Shown: one piece after another, positions 4,235 to 28,799 of the stretch
Position numbering within the stretch: position 1 is the stretch's first letter
How the letters are laid out: each line of letters opens with the position of its first letter
Translations under genes and position numbers: made by a program
Source of the DNA: Candidatus Bathyarchaeota archaeon
Lineage (GTDB): Archaea; Thermoproteota; Bathyarchaeia; Bathyarchaeales; DTEX01
Direction: 5' to 3'
Length of the DNA: 64,000 nucleotides
NCBI GenBank assembly: GCA_963714275.1
Contig: CAVQNT010000003.1
Span: 88,568 to 152,567, forward strand
Notes under the pieces: generated by a model
The model's input: only the letters and a program-made list of their open reading frames with translations
Told to the model about the DNA's origin: nothing
Databases searched by the model: none

Positions 4235-6175
4235 ATGAACCCTATAGAGTTAGGTAAAGACTACTTCATAAAAGGGAAGCGATGTTTCTTTTTAGTCGGT
4301 ACAAATTATATGCCGAGGAAATCCTTCTATCGTATGTGGGAAGAATGGGAACCATCTCAAATTGAAGAAGACTTTAAACAGTTAAAGGATCTAGGAGTTG
4401 AAGCTTTAAGGATTCCGCTTTTTTGGAGTTCCGTTGAACCTGAAGAAGGCGTTATAAGCCCCACATTTTTAGAAAGATTCGACAAATTCCTTGAAATAGC
4501 ATGCAAATACGGCGTGTACGTTATGCCCTTCCTCTTTGTAGGTGTATGTGTTGATTTATGGGACATTCCGTGGAGACAGAGTAGAAACATATACAAAGAC
4601 CCTGAAATGATGAGACTCGAATGCAAACAGGCTGAAATTTTAGCATCTAGATATGCCAATAATCACACTATAATTGCCTGGGACATAAGTGACGAACCAT
4701 ACTATTATGCAGGAGTCACAGACACAGAAACAGCGACTAATTGGGTCTCAAGTATTTATAAAGCAATAAAGTCTTGCGACAAAAACCATCCAGTCACTCT
4801 TGGATTCGATAACAACCACATAGTAGAAGATACAGGATTTCAAATTGAAAAACTGGCTCCATACCAAGACTTCTTCTCCTTATGCGCATACCCAATATAT
4901 GGTTTAAAAACGCCTGAAGCTCACACTTCAACTCGGTCAACCTACTTTACTTCCTTCTTCATAAAATTCAGTGATGTTGGGAAACCGGTTTTACTTTCGG
5001 AAGGTCCAAGTACAACAACAGTGTGGACTTCACTTGAAAGAGCTGGCAACTATTACAAAGTGGTCATGTATTCAAGTTTCATAAACAACTCAATAGGCGT
5101 AATGCCTTGGATACTTTATGACTACAGTACTGATCATCATAACAAATTTCCTCTCGATGACAAACCATTCGAAACCTCCTTTGGGATACTGACAAGCTCA
5201 GGAGAGAAAAAGCCTCCCGCAGAAGAGTTAAAAAAAATTTGCTCAAGTAATAAAAAAAATTGACCTTGAAAAATTTCATTTCAGAAAACCTGAGGCAGGA
5301 TTGTTAATACCTAAAGATTACTACAAACATGTAAAAACAGTCTGGCCAAGACTTTTTGAAGCCTATATCCTGGCTAAGGAAGCCCATATTGAACTGGACC
5401 TAATACGTGAAGGAGTAGACCTCACAAGTTATAAGCTCATTATTATTCCCAGCAGCCTCGTTCTGAGAACCTCATCATGGTATGCCCTTAAAAGATATGT
5501 GGAACAAAATGGAAACCTCTACTTTTCTTATGGTGGCTCATGGATTGGCTCTCCAAATCCTCTTGGCCCATTCTTCAATGAAATATTCGGTGTTCAACTT
5601 CAAGACAGAATCAGCTCCTATGCCATCTGAGCCATTATTGTTCACGAAAGACTGGATGAGTTAAAGGGGAATAAGTTTGAGTATCCAAAAACTGATGGAG
5701 CATCCTGTTTAGAGGTAGAACCCAATAAAGGGCGCGTAATCGCATACGACAGCCATAAAAATCCCGCCATAATAGTCAACAAGCAGAAAGGAAAGGGTAC
5801 AACCATGTTGGTTTCGCACCCAATTGAATCCTATCTCAGCGTTCTCCCGGATGCTTACTTATCGGATAAAACATTTTTGATTTATGAAGCCTTGAAGAAG
5901 GCGGCTAAGTCTCTTGTCCTATTACATGCTATAATCCTTTCATTGAGGCAGGCTGGATGGAGACTGATGACAAAGATGAAGCTGTCATTATCCTGATTAA
6001 CCATGAAAGAGTCAAAATAAAAACATCTATTTTATTGAATCAAGTCTGGCAACTTACATCCTTTCTCAATGGTAAAGGTTTCAAAGTCGGTGCCAAAGAA
6101 AATAAGACATTAATGAGATTGAGTTTTTCCCCCAGCGAAGTAAAAATTTTCCAAGCAATTCGTCGAGACACTTAA
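4235..6175 (+). pseudogene. GH42-like glycoside hydrolase (TIM barrel, trimerisation-type middle domain, small C-terminal domain), disrupted as assembled
   Basis: The N-terminal barrel reads GTNYMPRKS...RIPLFWSSVEPEEGV...IAWDISDEPYY. The middle domain YKLIIIPSSLVLRTSSWYALKRYVEQNGNLYF resembles the GH42 trimerisation domain. Disruptions: a frameshift inside the A7 run at 5231-5237, an in-frame TGA at 5628-5630 (the frame stays open through 5631-5996), and a frameshift near 5950 into 5957-6175. Confidence 0.65.
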
Positions 6176-9185: not shown

Positions 9186-9250
9186 GGGCTCTGAATCAAA
9201 AAAGCTAATTCCGATTCGTATTTAGTAAGTGAAGATAGTTAATTAACTAA

Positions 9251-9500
9251 ATTTTTATTTGTGTTTTTTTTTAGAGAGAGAGTGTATGTATATGTGAGTG
9301 AATGAGAGAAGGAAAGCAAGAGCGTATAAGTGAATTTGTGTGTGGGTGGGGATTAAAATTTAATCTTTCTCTCTCTCTCTCGTCCTGTTACGTTCTATTC
9401 TCTACTGTTCTGTTCTGTTATATGTGCTCTCTACACTCTACTCTACACTACTCTACTCTCACAACAAACAACAAACACAAATATAAAAATACAAAAAGGC
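9251..9500 (+). repeat. Composite low-complexity element, copy A (full length): GT/GA-rich left arm, AT palindromic core, CT/CA-rich right arm
   Basis: The core gattaaaatttaatc lies at 9351-9365. The left arm is almost free of C and the right arm almost free of G. See findings. The track ORF 9302-9511 is a translation artefact of this element. Confidence 0.8.
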
Positions 9501-9535
9501 AAGAAAACTAATTATTTATCGCAGTTCTCCTTATT

Positions 9536-10700
9536 ATGAATGAGATGATGCCATTGGGCTATGATATACACAACATACTCTTCTTTTTTGGTGCTGGAGC
9601 GTCGGCGCCATTCGGAATCCCAACCATGAAGCAATTTGTGGACGATTTTGAACGGTTTCTGTCTGACAATAGTTCACGCGAAGAAATATCTTTCTATAAG
9701 AAAGTGAAAGATACTTTGAACAGTCAACTTAATAGAGATATAGACTTAGAGGACGTTTTTACAGTTATTGACGGATATATCAATTTTAACTTTGAAAAAC
9801 TAGGCGTATTGGCATTATACATTTTTTCTGAGCTTTCAAAACCAAGATCAAAATCTCCAGATTATATAGAGAAAGATTCTAAAATCTGCGAAAGTCTTAG
9901 AGATAAATATCGAAAATTCGTCAAGGATAAGTGTCTAATACCTGACCAATCCTTTGGAAAAATATCAAATGTTTACAAAGATTTTTTTAATAGATTATTT
10001 TTGGAATCTACATCCCCCCGATCTTATGTCGATTACCAGAAAGGAGGTTATTGTTACAGTACGAATTGGACGATTTTCACAACAAATTATGATACATGCC
10101 TTGAGTATTACTTTCGTGAAGTAGCAGGAGTCTCATGTTAACACAGGATTCGTCCCCGATGTGGCATCCCAAAAATATGTAATGGATGCACTGACGCTGT
10201 TCAACGAACCTGCTGCAATAATAAGGCTCATCAAACTTCACGGTTCTGTAAACTGGCTTATTGATTCTGAAGGAACAGTATCAGAGGAGTCAGTTTTAGG
10301 TCAATCATTTTTCGGAAGGAAAATCGTAGGCGAGATGATGATATATCCAGTTCAGCAGAAGGACCTCTATCTAGAACCTTATATTTCCATGTACAAACTG
10401 TTGAACAATAAACTTTCGGAAAAATTAATTTGGATCATTATCGGTTACTCATTCAATGACCCTATCATCCGTGAGATTTTCGTGAGGAACTCGCGTGCAG
10501 ATAAAATTATGGTTTTCGTTCATCCTGACGCTCTAAGAATTGCTGTGGAAAGACTGAAGGGTCTCAAAAATGATGTACGACTATTGAATGAGTGGTTTGG
10601 GCAAGATGGGCATTACAGGAAGGTCAATTATGACATAATAAGTAAACTTATCTCGAATCCGCGATTCGACGCGGAAGAAACACCTGTTTCTCAAAAATAA
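9536..10700 (+). CDS. SIR2_2-family (ThsA-type SIR2 fold) protein, one frameshift between 10119 and 10137
   Basis: Motif blocks FFFGAGASAPFGIPT, TTNYDTCLE, IKLHGSVNW and IIGYSFNDP. The second piece (10161-10700) continues in another frame as ...HVNTGFVPDVASQKYVMDAL... Confidence 0.75.
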
Positions 10701-10839
10701 ATATTCCATTTGCGTGTGTATTAAAATTAGTGAGCTAGCCCAAACCAAAAAGTAGAATCCTATCGCCTTGATTAATAGCGAGATTTTTTCTTATCTAGAA
10801 ATTCATCCTTAAGTCGCTGAACATATACATCATCACTAG

Positions 10840-11676
10840 TCAATAGCTTTCCTTCGGGGATAGCCCTTTTACTATGAAAGATGCTATTTCATGCCGTACA
10901 AGATAGCTTCGGACATTGTTTTTTCCTTTGCATTGTTCATGCATCAAAAAATTGTTTAGTGCTATGTTCGAAATCCTCCTCAACCAACTATGACTTGGAA
11001 ATATCGATATTTGATCGTTAGATATGAAAGCCATTGACATCTTATCTGCAACTTGGCTAAGAGTAGGCAAAGTTCTAGCACCGTGAACATAATCGTTACG
11101 ATAATTATAGTCTTGCTTCAACAACCTTTCAAATAACAAATTGGTGTTCCCACGCTTTCCAAGGAATTCAATCTCACGGATCTCGTATTGTGTGAATCTA
11201 TCAGTTGTAACGTAATTCATAACAAATCTTTTTAGATTTCTCCATTTTCCATTTCTGTAGAGAATATTTGAAATGCTTTCTAAAGAGAAAACGAGCAGGA
11301 CAAACGCAATTGAGTAGTTGTTTTCCTTTGTGATCAAAGACTCGTTAAATGTCTTAGAGCTATCAATGAAAGCATTGAAGAATGAGGAGTCAATGCAGAG
11401 AAGCTTGTTAAATTTTGATTCTACGGCAACTATGTCTCTAAATGCACCATTTTCAATAGAAGCATTGAAAACTATATTAGTTCCATTTATTTTTCTACTA
11501 AGAATCCTCACTGCTTTGTTTGAAAGAAGAGAAACAATATCGGCATATGTTTTAGCTTCAAATTCTTCATTTTCCAGAATAACATATTTAGCAAAGGCTT
11601 TGCTAATTCGAAATTCCGCAGATGATTCACTCTCAGAAGAAAACTTGCATTCTTCCAATTGGATAGAAATTGGCAT
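10840..11676 (-). CDS. Hypothetical protein with an Rx4H HEPN-type motif
   Basis: A 278-aa ORF with ATG start. YNYRNDYVHG sits in the C-terminal third, in a context that reads as helical to me. It is convergent with the SIR2-like gene across a 139-bp spacer. Confidence 0.5.
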   Translation of the reverse strand: MPISIQLEECKFSSESESSAEFRISKAFAKYVILENEEFEAKTYADIVSLLSNKAVRILSRKINGTNIVFNASIENGAFRDIVAVESKFNKLLCIDSSFFNAFIDSSKTFNESLITKENNYSIAFVLLVFSLESISNILYRNGKWRNLKRFVMNYVTTDRFTQYEIREIEFLGKRGNTNLLFERLLKQDYNYRNDYVHGARTLPTLSQVADKMSMAFISNDQISIFPSHSWLRRISNIALNNFLMHEQCKGKNNVRSYLVRHEIASFIVKGLSPKESY

Positions 11677-11773
11677 GATCGTAAATTATATTGACCTATT
11701 ATTTATAGCATGGGAGATTGCTTAAGTCATAAATCAGCAATTCTTGGAATCCATGTTTCACGTTCGCCTCTAA

Positions 11774-11797
11774 GGTAGGTAGGGTAGGTAGGTAGGT
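11774..11797. repeat. (GGTA)n microsatellite-like tract
   Basis: ggtaggtagggtaggtaggtaggt, in the intergenic space between the HEPN-motif gene and the PRC-barrel gene. Confidence 0.8.
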
Positions 11798-12059
11798 TGT
11801 CGTGGGCATCTCAGTACTTTCGCTTGCACTCTAAAACAGAAATCACCGCCATAACTTCACTAAATAGTTCTCTTTTTTTCCTTCAAATAGTGTTAACTAA
11901 GGGAGCGACAGCGAAGTGCACAGACAAAATAACATTTTATTTGGTAACTAACTAGGTAAACATCATTATTCTCTTAAGACGAGATATAATGATAAAGCTA
12001 AACTAACCCTGCGGATAATTTATAAACACTAATAAATATTTTTTATATGGGTATGTTTT

Positions 12060-12338
12060 ATGAATTTAGAGGAATTGATAGGTAAACAAGTTGTAGATAG
12101 CCAAGCGCATATTCTTGGAAAAGTTTTTGGAATCGAGTTTGATACGAGTACGTGGAAGATCATGGATATCTGCATAGATTTAGATAAAATGGTCGTAGAA
12201 ATAATGGGGTTCCAGAAACCAAGGGTCATTGGGAGCGTTAAGGTCAGTATTCCTGTTGAAGAAGTCAATGCGATACACGATATTATAACATTGAAGAAAA
12301 ACACGGTTGAGCTAAAAAGCATAGCTAAAAAAATCTAA
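12060..12338 (+). CDS. PRC-barrel domain protein
   Basis: LIGKQVVDSQAHILGKVFGIEFDTSTWKIMDICIDLD...VSIPVEEVNAIHDIITL is a typical small archaeal PRC-barrel layout. It is a paralogue of the ORF at 14894-15223. Confidence 0.75.
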   Translation: MNLEELIGKQVVDSQAHILGKVFGIEFDTSTWKIMDICIDLDKMVVEIMGFQKPRVIGSVKVSIPVEEVNAIHDIITLKKNTVELKSIAKKI

Positions 12339-12408
12339 GAATTAAATGTACTCCCAGTTAGCTACTAGATAGCCTCTTTTTTTCTTCTTATAATATTAAC
12401 TAGCTAAT

Positions 12409-12480
12409 TGTGTGTGTTTTTGTTTGTTTGTTTGCGTAGAACGTCTGACAGACAGACGGTAGGCGTACGTGTGTGCGTAG
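12409..12480 (-). repeat. Low-complexity element, copy B (right-arm type, reverse orientation)
   Basis: The reverse complement reads ...ctgtctgtcagacgttctacgcaaacaaacaaacaaaaacacacac. This resembles the CT-rich to CA-rich tail of copies A, D and F. Confidence 0.55.
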
Positions 12481-12617
12481 CTCAGCTAGCGTCTAAGAGC
12501 CCAAAATTAGACTGTTCCCCAAACACATAGAACTTCTAATTCATTTTTCTAGAATTTTCTTTCATATATTTTTTGAGATACAAGAGAAGAACAATCAAAA
12601 GAAGGATTTGAATCGGA

Positions 12618-12827: not shown

Positions 12828-14181
12828 TTAATTGTGAAAAAATTTCTCTGCTAGCTTTATACCTATTGCCAAAGCTGATGTCAAGATAGACGTAAGGACC
12901 AACATGCCAGAAGAAGCCATCATTAATTGAGAGGCATTCGTAAATTCACTTAAACCCATCAATACTAAACTTACAAGTAAAGGAATTATTAGAACTACAT
13001 ATGTACATCTTTTTACGTTTCCCAGAATACGGACATGCTTATCTAGTAAAGCAATGAGAAACATCATCGGAAGAGAAAAATAAAAGGCTCCTATGAGGAA
13101 GCTTGTAGTTAAAATTGCCATGACCACGCTAAACTCCGAGCTGAATGTAAGAAAGTTTTGTACTGAAAATGATATACGCATAATACCCATCAAAGGGTAA
13201 AGAAAGCCTTTCACAGCCAACTTTGCTGCTTGGTCTTTCGCAATATAATGTGCTACGCTAGGACTGAATGAATAATACCAAACGTTAAATATTTCTGTAA
13301 ATTGACTGCCAACAAATGTTGATTTAACTTGATTGTCTCTGAATTCTCTTATGAATTGCACTTCTCCTTGTAGCTCTGATTTGATGGTAGCCATGGAAAC
13401 TAAACAATCTATTAATTCTGAACCGTTTTCCTGCACCTCTAACAAATACAATCCCGTTTCTAAGCTTACTAACCATAAAATCGACATACTTATAATCGTC
13501 CGGAGTCCATCCCAAAGGATTTCTGTCTCCCGTAGCCTCCACCCAGATCCATCCTGCACCTCTACCATCATCTATGTCCCAGTAAACGTTAGCATTGGGG
13601 TATTCAGGGAGATATATTAAAAGGGCAGCGTGATCAATCGCATCAACAATCGTCACATCGTAGCCTGCAGCAGAATACATCGCCGTGAGAATGAATGCAA
13701 AATCTTCACAGTCCCCATAAGCAACCTCCTGGTTGTTATAAGCCAGATCGATCATATGAGCCATTTCGTCAGGATTCCAGGCCCATTCTTCTTCTATCTC
13801 ATTATTAGTAACTGCGAGAACATAGGGGTTTTCTTCATCATATTTGTATTTTACCATAGATTGTACGAACTTCATTATTTTCTCTGCCCTGGTAACTTGA
13901 TCAGGATATTCAGTTAGAAACCATCTGCCGTACTGATAAGCAAGCTCTCTGTTTTGTCCTAGACTCTCAAAGACTACAGCAGGTAAGTAACCATCATCCC
14001 CTGTTGCAGAGTTTCTGTTAATATCCCAGCTATCGTACCAATAATATCCTTTTTTAGTAAAGCCTTCACTTTGATCAGCAATCGTACTTTGCACAGGATA
14101 CAAGAGTATAAGAATCGAACTAATCAAAAGTGGCAAAGACTTACTTTTCAATTCTCTATTTTCCTCATAGTGGTATAGCAA
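12828..14181 (-). CDS. Transglutaminase-like cysteine-protease-fold protein with signal peptide and C-terminal multi-TM domain, one frameshift near 13455
   Basis: The N-terminal piece (13324-14181) has a signal anchor plus GDCEDFAFILTAMYSAAGYDV...DHAALLIY (Cys and His of the transglutaminase core). The C-terminal piece (12828-13571 frame) has FIREFRDNQVKSTFVGSQFTEIFNVWYYSFSPSVAHYI followed by several TM helices. Confidence 0.65.
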
Positions 14182-15428: not shown

Positions 15429-17112
15429 ATGACGCAGTCATCAACAACCAAGCCTTCATTTCTTTCAGTGCAACCTGTCTCAAGGAAGGTTGGGCTTTAT
15501 GAAAAATTCGAGCTTCGAATCGACTTGAACGCAACATATGCCAATCCTTTCAATCCTGAAGAGATTGACTTACAAGCTGAGTTCACATCCCCCACTGGCA
15601 AAGAATGGAAGATATGGGGCTTCTATAACCATTCAAGCTGGTCTCATCTTTGGATGGTTCGTTTCGCGCCGACGGAGAAAGGGGTCTGGAAATATATCGT
15701 GAAAGTAAAAGACATAGAGGGCACAGCTCAAAGCCAAGCTGACACCTTCGAGGTGATTGACTCGTTGCATCATGGTTTCATCAGGATCTCGCCGAATAAG
15801 CGCTATCTGATGTATGATGATGGCACATCCTTCTATGGTGTTGGACTATGGTACAACGATGGTTATGACCTGTTCAACGAGGGACACATTACAGCAGATG
15901 GACTTGATGAGCTTAAACGTCGAGGTGCTAATTTCATCAGCTTCTTTCACACGCCTCTTGAGACTATGGGCACCGGTTTGGGTCGTTATGACCAGAATCG
16001 GTGTGGTCGACTTGACCAACTCTTTGAATGGTGTGAGAAGCGTAATATCCACATATCCTGGAACATGTGGTTTCACTCGCATCTTTCCCAGGCTGTTTGG
16101 GGTCCTGGTGGAGCACTATACAGACACAATCCCTTTCATCTTGTAGCTGATGCTGTTGACTTCTTCGGTAGTAAAGAAGCCTGGAAGTTTCAAGAAAAAA
16201 TCTGCCGTTACATAATCGCTCGTTGGGGGTATAGCCATGCATTGTTCCTATGGTTCATCATCGATGAAATTAATGGCACCGAAGGATGGCAGGATGGCGA
16301 TAAAGATGTCGCCGAAAAGTGGTGTAGAAAGATGGACGCCTTTTTCAATGAGCATGATCCCTACGGACGCCCTACCACAGGCACCCAAAGTGGGGGCATC
16401 GACGAATGGTGGCCAGGTGGATACAAAATCTTCGATATTGCAGCTCGCGAAATATATGAAGCGCAGGGACATCCTATGCCAAAGACAGGTAAAATCGACT
16501 GTGCCATTGAAAGCCCACTGCAATATAGCCTATCGCAACTACTCTACCCAGATCCATAATCTGTGGAAAGGCTTCAACAAACCCGCCATTATCGGTGAGT
16601 GTGGCTGGGACCATACATATTATGAACCGGGAACGCCAGGATATCTGGCAATGTATCACAATGCCTTATGGGTCAGCCTGACAAATGGTTTATGCTGTAC
16701 ACCATTCTGGTGGGCTTACTCAGATTGGATCAACGATAGTGTTGTTACCAATCAAATGCACCACTTAGCAAACTTCGTTTCAGACATCGATTTCGCTCAC
16801 CATAACCTTAAACCCGCTGAGATCAAGGCAGGTGACTGCGATGCATGGTGTATGAAGAACGACAAAATTATCTTCGGCTGGGTTGTTAATCCGCGTACCA
16901 GTGTTGCCAAAGAATCCTTCACGATCTCGGGGTTAAAAGATGGGAACTATGAAGTACATATCTATCACACATGGCGAGGTCAATACTTGAATGCGAACAC
17001 ACTTCAGTGTCAAGATGGAAAGCTCACCATCATGATTCCAGAATTACAGAGAAGCCAGGACCACGCTTCACACATCGGAAATGACATCGCTTTCAAAATC
17101 GTTAGAAAATAA
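15429..17112 (+). CDS. Glycoside hydrolase, DUF5060-type N-terminal beta-sandwich plus clan GH-A (GH5-like) barrel, one frameshift near 16510-16535
   Basis: N-terminus FELRIDLNATYANPFNPEEIDLQAEFTSPTGKEWKIWGFY. The barrel has WFIIDEINGTEG (acid/base region) and, in the second frame, KPAIIGECGW (nucleophile region). The pieces are 15429-16559 and 16237-17112. Confidence 0.65.
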
Positions 17113-17403: not shown

Positions 17404-17934
17404 GCTCTTTTCACTCCTATGCATTTTGTCTGCAAGAATAAAGTCTAGTTCTAGAAGCTTTGCTTCCTGCGCAATCTCAGAGAGACGTTTCCCTCTCTAT
17501 TAAACTTATCCATGACGAAGTTAGAAAACTTAATATGGTTAGCTGAAAACTTACGAATTGTGGATACAATGGCAAGGAATTTTAGCTGAAGCTATCTAGC
17601 CATGCCAGCCAAACAGCACTTAAGACCGTTTTAAGCCTAATTCGCTTTCGCAGGCTAAGCTGACTTTTCTCCTTACTAGATCTAGAGTAAATTCTCTTAT
17701 TCTTTAGACTCTTCGTTAACCAACTTTTCTGCTTCCATCTTTTAAGAGCCCTTTCCTTTCTTTTTCTTTCCTTTGCTACTTTCTTCATTTTTCTTTTCTC
17801 TTTTGTTTTTTTATATTTCTTAGTGGTTCTCGCTTGATTAAAATTTGTTCTCTTCCATCTATCCTAACAAACCTACTTAACTCTTTAGCATCCAAGATCA
17901 TCATGAGAAGGAAAAATGTGGGATGCAATCTTCT

Positions 17935-18040
17935 GTGTGTTTTTTAGAGAGAGTGTATGTATGTGAGTGAATGAGAGAAGGAAAGCAAAAGCATATAAGT
18001 GAAATAGTGTGTGACGGGGATTAAATTTTAATCTTTTTCT
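17935..18040 (+). repeat. Low-complexity element, copy C (left arm plus core)
   Basis: It aligns with 9261-9372 over about 110 nt with a few 1-2 nt indels: ...agagagagtgtatgtatgtgagtgaatgagagaaggaaagcaaaagcatataagtgaaatagtgtgtgacggggattaaattttaatcttttt. Confidence 0.85.
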
Positions 18041-18494
18041 TCTTCGCTGAAAGTGAAAGAATTGACTGGAAGACAAGCCATTATACAACGCAATATCCAA
18101 AATGTTAAGTCAAAACTTTTTTCACAGATAATGCTACCGTAAGCCAATTTGGTGCCGGGCCTGTGGATACTAAGGCTCAATAAAAGATTCGCCGAAAAGG
18201 AAGCAGACTAGAACGCCTAGAATGTGTTAATTCTTCATAAATTGTTTAAGCGCTAAGAAACGATTTTAGGGCATATCTTAATCTAAGAAACGCGGAAAAT
18301 CATCGAGTTGTTCAGAAAAAAAAGACGCAAAGACGAGATAGATCTAGCTGCCGAAACAGTGTTTCAGATTTTGAAGACTGGAGCAAAAAATGTAGAGAAA
18401 CAGAAGGGAAAAAACCATTGAGGAACCTCAATGGGAGAAGCATGAATCCGAAGAAATCACTAAAGAAAAAACAACTATACTACCTTCAAATGAA

Positions 18495-20698: not shown

Positions 20699-20914
20699 AT
20701 CAATGTTTTGACTGGTAAACTGTCGAAAAGGCTTACACTTCCCATCATATAATCCTTAGCTATACAAGGCATAATCTATGAAGTGAACACAAATAGCAAA
20801 GTCCAAGATCTGTCTGTGATATAGGAAAATCAAGGTTTATTATTGATGTTATTCGACGAATGTAGAAATCACTGTCATCTGAGCAGTGTATAATTTGTTA
20901 TTCCTATATTTTGG

Positions 20915-21020
20915 ACAAAATTTAATTTTTTTCTCTGTTTATTCTTCTCACGTGTGTTGTGTGTTGTGCGTTATCTGTTATACGCTCTCTAGCCACGATA
21001 TAGAACAACAAAACAACCAT
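20915..21020 (+). repeat. Low-complexity element, copy D (core-like aaaatttaat plus right arm)
   Basis: acaaaatttaatttttttctctgtttattcttctcacgtgtgttgtgtgttgtgcgttatctgttatacgctctctagccacgatatagaacaacaaaacaacc. Compare copy A: ctgttatatgtgctctctac...cacaacaaacaacaaacac. Confidence 0.6.
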
Positions 21021-21140
21021 TCTAAAATTTATTACTTGCCATTCTTTTTCTTTTTATTTTCAAGCATCTTTTAATACGGTTAAAAAAAATTATAAGGTTC
21101 AACATGCACTAGACCAAACTCTAGACATATCTGGAGTGTT

Positions 21141-22622
21141 CTAGCCGGGCTTGCTACGTCTTCTCATTACGAAAAGCCCTACAATGACAGCAACAGCAGC
21201 AGCTGCTGCTCCAATTATCACGTACATTATTGGGAAGCCTTCTTCCAGTGGAGTCAGCGTGACAGTCGGGTCGAGGTGCACTGTTTCAATACTTGGAATT
21301 ATTGTCGCAACATACTCTAGTCCTTGGTATTCAGGTTCATTGGACCAAAAATTAATTTGAAGTATGATGTTGTGGTCAGATCGTACCGTATGGGTTCCTG
21401 GTTGAGTGAATAAGTAATACGAATCGACCTGAACCGTTTGAGTGAGACCATCGATTGTTAATTGGGTTTCCTCCTTTGCGAAGAAGTATGCCTCAACAAA
21501 TGCTTCAGTGGGCAGATGAATCATGGTATCTTGGTTTGGTTGAATGCCGATAAACATAACTCCATTAGCATACCCCGTGTAAATTCCTCCTAAGGAGGAA
21601 CGTGTTATTTCGATACTTCCGTTATGAATAAACGTTAATGTGATTGGTTTGTCGCTCTGCACAGCAATGGCGTATGCTGTTGGCTGGACTGCAACGCCAG
21701 TTCCTCCTGTTACTGTAAACTTAGTCATCAATTGCTTGGTTTCAAGATCATACACTCTCACTTCAGTATCCTCAGAAGCTAATATTCGGTATCCGTAATC
21801 CCTTTGGTTGTCCCACCCCCATTCCCCCCTCAACGACCTTGTTAAGAAGAATGTTCCCACAAAACCTCCTTCAGCAGAGGGAACGGGAAAACATGTACAA
21901 TCACCACCTCCTACAGCTGGAATTGCGACTGACTGAATCATAATATTGCCTGTAGACTCAAATTTAAAGACCCTAAAAGGACTCAATATTATATTTTTAT
22001 ACGAGTTGGCATCAAGAGGATATTGTTGTTCATCCCCGTCATCTCTAGTCACAGTAACCCTTGTTTTTTCTAAAGCCAGCATTGTGTATTCAGCGTTGAT
22101 TCCTTGGCTAGAACCCATCAAAACGAATTCCTTGCCAACATACATGCCATCTGTAGACAAATAGGAGCCACGTGGTAATGGTCCCTCTCTAGCAGTAGCA
22201 TTAGGAATACTATGATAATTAAGAAGCAAAACAGAAACCTGCTTATCTGATACTACCTTGAAGACTGTGCCATTGGAAAGTAACACAAAATGTTTCTTCA
22301 TGCTATTTATTGTTACTTCCGAAACAAGTCTATCAAGCGTCAGGTCATAGACCATTACGTTTGTGTCGTCCTCTGCAACGCTAATCGCAATCAAGGAGGT
22401 ATTACCAACTGAGCCTGTGTCAAGCCTCCAAACTGAGTTACGATCGTTCGTATCAGTAAGATTAAATCTGTATATTTTAGATGGCACAACACCATAGTAA
22501 GTATAATCCGGGTTTCCTAATGATGGAAAGACATGGAGATAAAATGGGTATATGAGGAAAATTGTGAGTATAGTCACAACCAAATAAAATAATTTAATTT
22601 GTAAGCCTTTCCAGAACTGCAA
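21141..22622 (-). CDS. Hypothetical extracellular protein with N-terminal signal anchor and C-terminal TM anchor
   Basis: A 493-aa ORF with TTG start. N-terminal helix FYLVVTILTIFLIYPF and C-terminal helix YVIIGAAAAAVAVIVGLFV followed by MRRRSKPG. Recurring ED(T)xVxVYDLxxxxL strands suggest a repeated beta structure. Confidence 0.5.
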   Translation of the reverse strand: MQFWKGLQIKLFYLVVTILTIFLIYPFYLHVFPSLGNPDYTYYGVVPSKIYRFNLTDTNDRNSVWRLDTGSVGNTSLIAISVAEDDTNVMVYDLTLDRLVSEVTINSMKKHFVLLSNGTVFKVVSDKQVSVLLLNYHSIPNATAREGPLPRGSYLSTDGMYVGKEFVLMGSSQGINAEYTMLALEKTRVTVTRDDGDEQQYPLDANSYKNIILSPFRVFKFESTGNIMIQSVAIPAVGGGDCTCFPVPSAEGGFVGTFFLTRSLRGEWGWDNQRDYGYRILASEDTEVRVYDLETKQLMTKFTVTGGTGVAVQPTAYAIAVQSDKPITLTFIHNGSIEITRSSLGGIYTGYANGVMFIGIQPNQDTMIHLPTEAFVEAYFFAKEETQLTIDGLTQTVQVDSYYLFTQPGTHTVRSDHNIILQINFWSNEPEYQGLEYVATIIPSIETVHLDPTVTLTPLEEGFPIMYVIIGAAAAAVAVIVGLFVMRRRSKPG

Positions 22623-22968
22623 AATTATACGCTCCTAAATATCCGAACATTATATATATTAATTTATGTTATATTTAATTATAATGTCTGTAACAATCAC
22701 GAGGTTTTTCCATGAAGCTTCTATTAGAGTCCAATCAAAAAATAACCTAGAATAAGCGGTACAGTCTTAAAAGTCACAGACTAATGAAGGCTTTTTGGTA
22801 ATAACACTAAATGTTGTCGGTTACGGCTTCTAATAGTGCTAAGAAGATAGGTGAGATGACTATTCAAGCGTTTAAAGACTTCTTCGCTGGTAGAAAAGTC
22901 AGGAATAACATCAATTTAACTGAATTTGGCATAGCTTAGATGCGAGAATCATTCAAGATCGTATAAGC

Positions 22969-23669: not shown

Positions 23670-24915
23670 TTGAATAGACCTGATGTTTACTACATTGAGG
23701 CACATGTACCAATTGAATATATTCCACAGGTCCCCTCCAAAAAATGGTACACATACAGCCTGATATATCAAACAAAAGAGCTTGCAGGAAAAATTTTGTT
23801 AGATACTATTAAACCGGGAGACACTGTTGCCATTAAAACACATTTTGGTGAACGATACTCTCAATATTACATTAGACCAGCCTATGTAAGGAAGGTAGCT
23901 GATAAAATTAGGGAATTAGGTGGAAAACCCTTCGTGTGTGACACGCTTTTTTCTGGTATGGCTGTAGAGAGAGATGAAGCAGACGAACCCTTCCTGACCA
24001 GGAGATCTCTTGAAGAGGGTCTAGAAACTGCAGCTATGAATGGTTTCACCCGTGAAACTATGGGGTGTCCAGTCTTCTTTGCAGATGCTCCAAAGGGATT
24101 AAGATCAATAAAACATCCCTTTAATGGGACATACATCAAAGAGGTTTTTATCGCTTCAGTTATCGCTGAGGCTGATGTCCTATTGAGCCTGGCGCATTTT
24201 AAGGCTCATGACTGTATGTCAGTGGGCGGAACTCTCAAGAATATCGGTGTGGGTTGCTCAGCTAAACAGGGAAAATGGTGGATTCACCACAGTTCTAAGC
24301 TTAAGTGTGGACTTGAAAAAATGCACAGAATGCGGCGAATGCGTATCTTATTGCCCAGTGGACGCAATAGAGATGGTTCAGGGAAAAGCCCATATTATTC
24401 CAGAGAAATGTATCGACTGCGCTGGCTGCATCGACCATTGTAAATCTGCTGCATTTATTAGTAGGACATTTCCAACCATAGAGGAACAAGAGGCTAGAAT
24501 CGCTGAAACTGCTACTGGCATCATTCAGTATTTTAAAGGTAAAGTAGCATTCATCAACTTAGCTGTTGACATTGTGCCCCTTTGCGACTGCGATCCCTTC
24601 CAAGGAGTTCCAATAGTTCCAGACCTAGGCGTACTAGCATCAAAAGACCCAGTGGCTATCGATAGGGCATGCATAGACCTTGTAAACAACTCCTCAGGCA
24701 TCCCTAACTCAATGGCTGAGGCTGCAGGTGTGCTGAAGCCTGGAGTAGAAAAACTTAACACCATCGCTAAAATGAGGTGGAAGGCTACGCCTGGAGCAAC
24801 TCATGTGACACCGGACTGGAGGGTCATGCTTGATACAGCTGAGAAGGTTGGACTTGGAACTCAACATTACAATTTAATTAAAATAAATTTTGGCTATCCT
24901 CCAAAGAAATCATGA
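23670..24915 (+). CDS. DUF362-domain protein with an inserted 2x[4Fe-4S] ferredoxin domain, one frameshift near 24265-24290
   Basis: VAIKTHFGE...KPFVCDT...LAHFKAHDCMSVGGTLKNIGVGC, then in a second frame CTECGECVSYCP and CIDCAGCIDHC, then VPLCDCDPFQGVPIVPDLGVLASKDPVAIDRACIDLVN. Confidence 0.7.
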
Positions 24916-28258: not shown

Positions 28259-28392
28259 GGGATTAAAAATTAGTCTTTTTCTTCTTCTTACTTACTCTTA
28301 CTTACATACTCTTCCGCTTCTGTTTACTCGGTATATCGTGTGTATCGTATATCACACAAAAAAACAAACACAAACAACCAAAAACAAAAAGC
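28259..28392 (+). repeat. Low-complexity element, copy F (core plus right arm)
   Basis: gggattaaaaattagtctttttcttcttcttacttactcttacttacatactcttccgcttctgtttactcggtatatcgtgtgtatcgtatatcacacaaaaaaacaaacacaaacaaccaaaaacaaaaag. Confidence 0.7.
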
Positions 28393-28799
28393 TGACAAAA
28401 AATACTTAGAAGAGTAGGGAATAAATAAGAATTTAAAAAAATATGTAAATTTCTATTGGATAGCTCATCCTATTTATAGAGATATATATAGGAAAGACAC
28501 TGTGCCATATTTCTTTATGTTAAAAAGTTTGAAGAACAAGAAATTTGTTAAACTAAAAAATAACAAAAACAAGCGGTGATAATAGGATTTGAGTAAACTT
28601 GCTTTCATCATTTTCTTTCCGCTTTTTCTTTATTTCAGACTAGTCTTCTGGTTAGCTAGTAGAATGTGAACGAGTAAACCCTAATGACACAAGTTTCGTG
28701 TCTTTTTAACATGTTTTGTGATGCTTCTTCCACACATGAGTGTATGAGCATGAAACATAGAATAAATAAAAGTTATTAGACTAATAATATGTGTTTTAG

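Follow-up and report, generated by a model that had tools for sequence, protein, structure and literature searches.

Positions 9252-9498 of a 64,000-nucleotide stretch of the Bathyarchaeota contig CAVQNT010000003.1, called the window in what follows, hold an intergenic element, element 1, that is a member of a family of repeats specific to Bathyarchaeia and apparently undescribed until now. Element 1 is the two-armed form: two units run outward, head-to-head, from a single shared core. A preliminary description, made from the letters of the window, could not assign the element to any repeat class; it does belong to one, and the family can be defined.

The element and its family

At the centre of element 1 lies the palindrome GATTAAAATTTAATC (9351-9365), contained in the 20-nucleotide (nt) core GGGATTAAAATTTAATCTTT of the forward strand (9349-9368). 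The sequence features listed in the preliminary description of 9251-9500 are all found where it placed them. The palindrome, which it called nearly perfect, is perfect, with seven bases on each side of a central one (7-1-7). The left arm (9252-9348, reverse strand) has a top strand poor in C and rich in purines and T, and is G-poor when read outward from the core; a run of nine T (9264-9272) stands in its T/G-rich outer end, followed by (AG)5 (9273-9282). The right arm (9369-9498, forward strand) is G-poor and C-rich: (CT)n gives way to CTGTT and CTCTA repeats, and these to a tail rich in CA and A (9460-9498). Next to the palindrome, on the forward strand, stands an 18-nt homopyrimidine tract of the form TCTTT(CT)n, TCTTTCTCTCTCTCTCTC (9364-9381).

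The composition of the element is a mirror image because two outward units share one palindrome. The switch of strand composition at the core, already pointed out in the preliminary description, is the strongest of the 64 kb. GC skew passes from +0.88 over 9250-9349 to -0.59 over 9400-9499. When the skew of the right 100 nt is subtracted from that of the left 100 nt across the window, the difference reaches its maximum, 1.5, at 9363; the standard deviation (SD) over the window is 0.24, and the maximum is thus about 6 SD. Tract 9218-9322 has at most one C per 50 nt, and is the longest of its kind in the window; 9425-9498 has at most one G per 50 nt. It had been stated that the arms are not a base-for-base inverted repeat. 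Their outer 60 nt or so do form one in part: 9252-9308 aligns locally, with gaps and imperfections, to the reverse complement of 9427-9487, in the outer part of the right arm, with a score of 40. Shuffled arms score 17.6 +/- 2.8, and none of 1000 shuffles reaches 40.

Tandem Repeats Finder reports only short decayed microsatellites in element 1 (GTTCT, ACTCT, ACAACAA). An open reading frame (ORF) of 69 amino acids (aa), at 9302-9511, covers the core and the right arm; since the right arm is absent from the closest relatives, this ORF is an artefact, as had been stated. The ATG of the SIR2-like gene that follows is at 9536, 37 nt past the element, where about 35 had been estimated. Folded as RNA, on both strands, or as single-stranded DNA (ssDNA), the element does no better than its dinucleotide shuffles (z = -1.5 and -0.4 for the RNA strands, -1.0 for ssDNA). 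It contains no tRNA, and neither in the window nor in 141 kb of related loci does any sequence reach the gathering score of an Rfam family; a relaxed search, with E up to 5, returned only sub-threshold noise.

Compared loci in related genomes are labelled by L-numbers (for example, L005 is JAEOTE010000031.1), and relatives were compared at the orthologous site through the esterase gene to the left of element 1. No record of the exact esterase was found; its named homologues are in Bathyarchaeota/Bathyarchaeia, from which this class was taken as the most likely source of the window. In independent assemblies from ENA and JGI the left arm recurs: L073 and L074/L083 have it at the orthologous site, L081 and L082 in two further contexts. 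Element 1 is real, and not the assembly artefact against which the preliminary description had advised a check.

That description had also called for a search of related archaeal genomes. One genome per species (the GTDB representatives) was scanned with the query GGGATTAAAWWTTARTCTTT, which gave 71 matches: about 50 lie in about 37 metagenome-assembled genomes (MAGs) of Bathyarchaeia, from peat, bog, fen, soil and enrichment cultures, and the rest are single matches in unrelated bacteria. In Bathyarchaeia, the common context reads (TTTGGG)n-TTTG, core, YTCTCTCTC, then a G-poor, C-rich tract; the 21 matches outside Bathyarchaeia, taken as a control, have neither asymmetric flanks nor extended context. 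In a family profile anchored on the core, the core GGGATTAAAWTTTAATCTTT is invariant, and that of element 1 matches it exactly. The central base of the palindrome is A or T, about 50:50, and the pyrimidine run that follows is kept across the family, with a median of 14 nt. Over about 130 nt after the core, G is down to 8-15% from a baseline of 19% and C is up to 30-34% from one of 18%, and the sequence then becomes A-rich. The interval 9341-9378 matches this profile with 42.3 bits (E = 2.4e-11). Both the core and the order of the arms are conserved, and the family is not the random simple sequence that the preliminary description had considered as a way of being wrong.

Exact cores number 1-4 per representative genome, and 2 in a complete chromosome of 3.05 Mb, while about 40% of the 8-kb loci hold additional degenerate cores. 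An extrapolation to 100-200 copies per genome was dropped, exact cores being so few and the copies clustered. The phage and plasmid collections hold no match, and IMG/VR two chance matches. The motif is in no paper of the library that was searched, and a search there on Bathyarchaeota and the TATA box gave nothing on Bathyarchaeia promoters.

Two variations of this context deserve mention. Directly upstream of the core, in L021 (~560-615) and many other loci, (TTTGGG)n runs have up to five G-tracts, of G-quadruplex type and resembling telomeres; all that the window copy has of them is GGGTGGGG. Locus L005, labelled Heimdallarchaeota, has the full family context, TTTGGGTTT-core-TTCTCTCTG, with a C-poor left arm resembling the one in L058: the contig may belong to Bathyarchaeia and be mis-binned, or the family may reach beyond the class.

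The copied unit and its surroundings

The core 20-mer is found three times in the window, against 0.03 copies expected by chance, and the copies of element 1 divide its two arms between them. Its left arm and core are 86% identical to element 2 (17934-18036, forward strand), whose core (18017-18036) has one mismatch and which has no long right arm. Its core and right arm are 76% identical to element 3 (28259-28400, forward strand), which has a core with two mismatches (28259-28278), a right arm with a CA/A-rich tail, and no left arm. A fourth copy, element 4 (20915-21063, forward strand), consists of a degenerate core ACAAAATTTAATTTTTTTCTCT (20915-20936) and a G-poor arm. The non-coding gaps that contain elements 1-3 are all unusually long, and the genes on either side of each are unrelated.

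An all-against-all comparison of the copies in the family gives the limits of what is duplicated. Long similarity between copies, paralogous or in different species, starts at the core (-10 to 0) and runs rightward only, to +140..+190. Two loci of one genome, L006 and L060, are 98% identical over -4..+148, with neither target-site duplication nor terminal inverted repeat. Core plus arm is the unit copied to new loci: an invariant AT-rich palindrome (GATTAAAWTTTAATC), in a conserved block of about 40 nt, from which an arm of 50-180 nt leads outward. Along the arm, (CT)n is succeeded by repeats of CTA type, then of CA type, and by a run of A. The sequence of the arms, which consist of short repeats in decay, changes fast but their composition is steady, the outward strand being almost G-free and C-rich with an A-rich end.

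Element 1 is thus two outward units on one core. Support comes from its inverted outer arms; from L072, at the orthologous site, where a shorter arm and an (AG)n run abutting the palindrome (GAGAGAGAAAGATTAAAATTTAATCC) make up the canonical unit in reverse; and from divergent pairs of units in L041 and L019. A convergent pair occurs in L035, and L063, L062 and L024 have armless, fully symmetric versions, GGTTGGATTAAAWTTTAATCCAACC, in which the palindrome extends to 11-1-11.

Some arms, in other species, contain a second conserved island about +75..+100 from the core: CGTGCC-TAATGTCTGTC, or CACGCACCCGCGTGCGTGCC-TAATGTCTGTC with (CTGTCAGT)n after it. The island CACGCACCCGCGTGCGTGCC-TAATGTCTGTC, whose first part is a small GC-rich palindrome, is carried by L010, L014, L026, L028, L032, L055 and L001, and a version resembling its reverse complement is found at 12436-12480 of the window.

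Of the 54 cores whose position was compared to genes, 52 are intergenic. The orientation of the neighbours is near random: on the right side 27 are co-oriented and 18 convergent, on the left 24 and 24. The 110 genes that flank cores fall into 86 Pfam families, none of them recurrent, and neither these genes nor 10 cassette genes include a transposase, an integrase or a toxin-antitoxin gene; the 110 include no RAYT. With several cores per 8 kb in other genomes, four copies within 19 kb of the window and none in the other 45 kb, the family is clustered.

In some loci the cores follow each other every 0.8-1.2 kb (L024:968/1873/2919; L055:2129/3076/4135; L062:3574/4782/5564), and are separated by one or two small genes, mostly ORFans, in the manner of a cassette array. 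Some of these spaced cores are armless extended palindromes of the type described above, and the cassette genes are in mixed orientation.

The comparison with close relatives tells where the elements stand. Element 1, between the esterase gene and the SIR2-like gene, borders a variable segment, 9219-12488, that contains the split SIR2-like gene, a minus-strand ORF of 278 aa, an ORF of 97 aa and a C-poor tract. Locus L075, with flanks 93% identical, is without the element: its match with the window breaks off at 9218 and picks up at 12489, and a LarA gene takes the place of 9219-12488. In L072 and L073, an AP-endonuclease gene comes after the core. In L073/L074, with flanks 93-95% identical, the left arm is shared, the core is decayed, and homology ends at 9356, inside the palindrome; in L072, homology with the window ends at its core. 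The break points of homology with relatives are placed at 9356 and 9316. Farther along the window, 20711-22647 (1.9 kb), with element 4 and a minus-strand ORFan of 493 aa, is absent from L081, which is 94% identical. In this population, one and the same left arm meets a different right side in each of three places: element 1, element 2/L081, and L082. The elements therefore mark the borders of exchangeable segments. Individual cores can decay, as in L073 and in L081, where the orthologue of element 2 has a mutated core, while the consensus of the family is invariant.

Several other features of the window touch these segments. At the right edge of 9219-12488, a C-poor low-complexity tract (12400-12488) is followed by a core-like GAGCCCAAAATTAGACTGTT (12497-12516), and 12400-12516, on the forward strand, is possibly a decayed left arm with its core, an identification that we regard as tentative. 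At 17836-17887, on the forward strand, a degenerate site resembling the core, GATTAAAATTTGTTCTCTTCC, is continued by a short tract without G. The non-coding gap in which it stands (17425-18494, 1.07 kb) contains in succession a pyrimidine-rich tract (17700-17835), the degenerate core at 17836 with its G-free arm, and element 2, and looks like nested or serial elements. In L081, the junction at 105-118 reads CTG-CTAGCTAGCTAG-CAG. An (AGGT)6 microsatellite (11773-11797), intergenic, adjoins the 278-aa ORF of the variable segment.

Motifs of the form (CTAG)n/TAGCTAACTAACTAA, which put stop codons in every frame, adjoin the outer ends of arms of left type and occur at empty-site junctions (L082 ~170-190; L073 ~1990-2005; window 12392-12410; L075 2959-2975 and ~4400-4415). 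As a target-site motif, (CTAG)n/TAGCTAACTAA was rejected: 9 of 31 matches lie near cores, in stretches that make up 8% of the bases, the motif is rare in the window, and the enrichment is confounded because motif and cores are both intergenic.

Four genes of the window are apparently split into pairs of ORFs, adjacent or overlapping and in different frames: 9536-10141 + 10161-10700, 12828-13571 + 13324-14181, 15429-16559 + 16237-17112, and 23670-24443 + 24208-24915. In the first pair, which is the SIR2-like gene, only the second part has a SIR2_2 match in Pfam. The pattern suggests homopolymer errors of long reads, or true pseudogenes of the variable region.

Possible roles of the palindrome

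It is tempting to ask what such a palindrome is for. Our conjecture, a tentative one, is that a protein binds it symmetrically, the most plausible case being a bidirectional promoter module of the type formed by a B recognition element (BRE) and a TATA box, with G-poor transcripts going outward. Among the options named in the preliminary description, a promoter-type region is the most plausible. A protein would recognise the palindrome symmetrically, and the promoter would be used in either direction: in each, ATTAAA could act as the BRE and WTTTAATC as the TATA-like box, with a purine run ahead (GGGG, or (GA)nAAA on the other strand). Transcription would proceed outward into the arms, which would be non-coding leaders or short non-coding RNAs. 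We propose that the RNA, since the arms are without G, would lack structure and contain few start codons or Shine-Dalgarno-like sequences. The repeated block of about 40 nt would also supply homology, or a specific site, for recombination, and the units would thereby come to lie at the borders of exchangeable gene cassettes.

The core agrees with the BRE/TATA consensus RNWAAWTTTAWATR (bioRxiv 10.64898/2026.06.17.732947) at 12 of 14 positions, the consensus being that of Sulfolobales. Which strand matches is set by the central base alone. The first purine after the pyrimidine run comes 6-13 nt beyond the core, and start codons on the outward strand number 3.06 per 100 nt, 35% below the 4.75 of control flanks. 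There are precedents: intergenic repeats of the halovirus HF2 proved to be promoters (PMC8707807), and families of repeats are known for "promoter reuse" (PMC3575422).

A number of observations weigh against this conjecture, in which the transcripts and their direction are themselves predictions from the sequence. In AT-rich DNA the match to RNWAAWTTTAWATR is easily obtained: chance alone predicts about 85 sites as good in the window, and 103 are counted. From the palindrome to the predicted start the sequence is (CT)n, where archaeal promoters typically have an AT-rich proximal element. Neighbouring genes have no preferred orientation, convergent genes enclose 7 of 41 elements, and co-oriented genes start about 300 nt away (median). 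The SIR2-like gene has a TATA-like sequence of its own, at ~9503-9520. The extension of some palindromes to 11-1-11 goes beyond what TBP and TFB need, and is the usual mark of a site for a dimeric protein with sequence specificity. Finally, T-runs are not depleted in the arms (9, where composition predicts 8.5), which leaves no signal of selection against outward termination; the idea that the arms lack outward T-run terminators was rejected on this count. An excess of inward T-runs at the outer ends was not used as evidence, since it is expected at any mid-intergenic position.

Two attempts at a promoter consensus for Bathyarchaeia gave no result: anchored on tRNA genes, it met with just one tRNA in about 400 kb, and anchored on start codons, it had no positional TATA signal, because genes carry Shine-Dalgarno-type leaders.

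The break points at cores lend themselves to another interpretation, which we consider unlikely, if a serious possibility: the palindrome would be a site of recombination or transposition, and the units non-autonomous mobile elements or cassette junctions served by an enzyme encoded elsewhere. The arms would then be passenger or filler DNA made by slippage, with no necessary function for the host. Core and arm are duplicated with sharp edges to unrelated loci, and a palindrome of this kind, extended, perfect and symmetric about its AT centre, is what the core sites of recombinases typically look like. Such an enzyme would account for pairs of orthologous-looking loci with different arm types after an identical core (L028/L036 and L013/L022), for the left arm with three right sides, for homology among 93-95% relatives that stops in or at the core, and for the position of element 1 on the border of a 3.3-kb variable segment and of element 4 inside a 1.9-kb indel. 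The cores 0.8-1.2 kb apart among small ORFan genes, and the decay of single cores under an invariant consensus, fit as well. However, ordinary homologous recombination between dispersed 40-nt repeats could give such break points equally. The flanking genes provide no transposase, integrase or RAYT, the single-armed units have none of the target-site duplications or terminal inverted repeats of mobile DNA, and, the two chance matches apart, viral contigs, phages and plasmids hold no copies. Across species, moreover, conservation is limited to the core, and in the arms it is composition rather than sequence that persists, which points to a constraint beyond mobility.

A bolder form of this idea, to which we give a low probability, makes of the palindrome GATTAAAWTTTAATC the place of crossover or entry in an archaeal system of gene-cassette exchange, hitherto undescribed, in which a dimeric recombinase or nuclease would swap what lies on either side. 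The microsatellite-like arms, including the telomere-like (TTTGGG)n, would have been laid down by slippage-prone or template-poor repair synthesis. In a variant, the core would fire divergent G-less transcripts, and these would serve newly acquired cassettes as leaders that are silent in translation and free of structure.

Symmetry itself suggests a third possibility, which we hold to be distinctly doubtful: a site for a dimeric DNA-binding protein outside the basal machinery, such as a global regulator, a chromosome-organising protein or an insulator protein, whose access to the site the strand-asymmetric arms would preserve, or which they would insulate. The form ATTAA-AWT-TTAAT fits the abcdeWWWedcba type of site of the Lrp/AsnC family; the palindrome is perfect at 7-1-7, and in some copies at 11-1-11; and a central base evenly divided between A and T is what symmetric recognition predicts. 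Co-evolution with a conserved protein predicts a core invariant in about 37 species, and the moderate number of exact cores per genome, their intergenic position and their independence of gene orientation are in agreement. Such a protein explains neither the copied arms nor the asymmetric flanks, with (TTTGGG)n to one side and TTT(CT)n to the other. The operators of a regulon are normally not duplicated with 150 nt of flank. No partner protein was found, and only 2 of the 110 neighbouring genes are of Lrp/AsnC type, without enrichment.

Very improbable, in our view, are the unusual DNA structures (H-DNA, Z-DNA, cruciform) and the unwinding element or replication origin that the preliminary description had entertained. 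The tract at 9364-9381 does have the properties of an H-DNA former (a homopurine/homopyrimidine mirror repeat of at least about 15 nt), and it is conserved in the family, but this is a potential, and a triplex at this place is putative. The AT-rich perfect palindrome could be extruded as a cruciform, and (TTTGGG)n, left of many cores, is a motif of G-quadruplex type, but with its two G-runs the window copy can form none. The alternating purine-pyrimidine runs put forward as Z-DNA are not conserved in the family, and single-strand folds are no better than shuffles. As for origins, they are incompatible with the copy number and the clustering (at least 4 copies in 19 kb here, several per 8 kb in other genomes); no orc1/cdc6 gene is nearby, and the switch from G-rich to C-rich on the top strand has the polarity opposite to that of a classical origin.

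That the element is an artefact of assembly or polishing, or meaningless random simple-sequence DNA, is an idea to which several frameshifted-looking genes in the window and the low complexity of the arms might lead, and to which we give practically no credit, since arm and core are reproduced in independent assemblies, from other samples and platforms, and the core recurs in about 37 genomes with the same context where chance predicts 0.03 copies per window.

Comparison with known systems

Bathyarchaeia are among the most abundant uncultured archaea of sediments, peat and soil, and almost nothing is known of their cis-regulatory signals, their non-coding DNA or the mechanisms of their genome plasticity. 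The 40-nt block offers a handle, in MAGs, on transcription starts, on a binding protein and on variable, cassette-like regions. Should the arms be G-less transcripts, or products of slippage primed at a site, the mechanism would be new in either case. In short-read assemblies, such repeats are likely break points, and a source of spurious low-complexity ORFs like the one of 69 aa.

Two comparisons can be settled quickly. An oriC is rejected on the copy number given above, on the lack of ORB-like repeats, and on neighbours that are an esterase gene and a SIR2-like gene; a structured RNA or long hairpin is rejected on the Rfam and folding results. The arms also recall the Rho-utilisation (rut) sites of bacteria, which are C-rich, G-poor tracts of about 80-150 nt, unstructured on the RNA-like strand. 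The likeness is one of composition only, and archaea are not known to have Rho.

[quoted passage not shown] Unlike MITEs, the typical unit is single-armed and very variable in length, its conservation is central, at the core, and no related insertion sequence or transposase is among the 110 neighbouring genes. The MITE assignment was rejected on L006/L060, which have neither terminal inverted repeats nor target-site duplication, inverted ends being confined to the two-armed copy; in addition, the empty-site break of L075, at 9218, lies about 35 nt outside the outer ends (from 9252) and does not coincide with them. The text of a survey of prokaryotic MITEs (PMC11602168) does not mention Bathyarchaeia.

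With the attC sites of integrons, including clusters of attC sites lacking integrases (CALINs) in archaea (PMC9668308) and the VCRs of Vibrio, the family shares clustered palindromes about 1 kb apart among small genes, mostly ORFans, homology between relatives that breaks at the repeat, and variable cassette content. The attC/CALIN assignment was rejected all the same: the element has no RYYYAAC/GTTRRRY (R''/R') motifs, its ssDNA folds as reported above (z = -1.0), the cassette genes are in mixed orientation, and no tyrosine recombinase of IntI type is among the neighbours.

The REP, BIME and REPIN sequences and the Correia-type elements (PMC3733652, PMC8049555, PMC3184786) are likewise short intergenic palindromes, single or in inverted pairs, lineage-specific, hot spots of rearrangement, and sometimes endowed with promoter or terminator activity. 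REPs, however, are GC-rich imperfect palindromes with GTAG/CGTC heads, dependent on RAYTs and specific to a species, whereas the Bathyarchaeia palindrome is AT-rich, perfect, present in many species and provided with long, strand-asymmetric arms of low complexity. The REP/REPIN assignment was rejected for want of a GTAG/CGTC head in the palindrome and of a RAYT among the 110 neighbouring genes.

The closest likeness to the promoter module that we tentatively favour is with the promoter-bearing repeats, or "mobile promoters" (PMC3575422, and those of HF2, PMC8707807). These too are homologous non-coding units in front of unrelated genes, with an AT-rich, TATA-like core conserved within a lineage, and in HF2 the arrangement is bidirectional. 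The Bathyarchaeia copies differ in that they also lie between convergent genes, in the long perfect palindrome, and in a promoter activity that is putative. Arms of 50-180 nt, conserved in composition and not in sequence, have no counterpart in the families of PMC3575422 and PMC8707807. The family is a dispersed intergenic repeat, unusual among those of prokaryotes in that what its arms conserve is the composition of a strand, and not its sequence.

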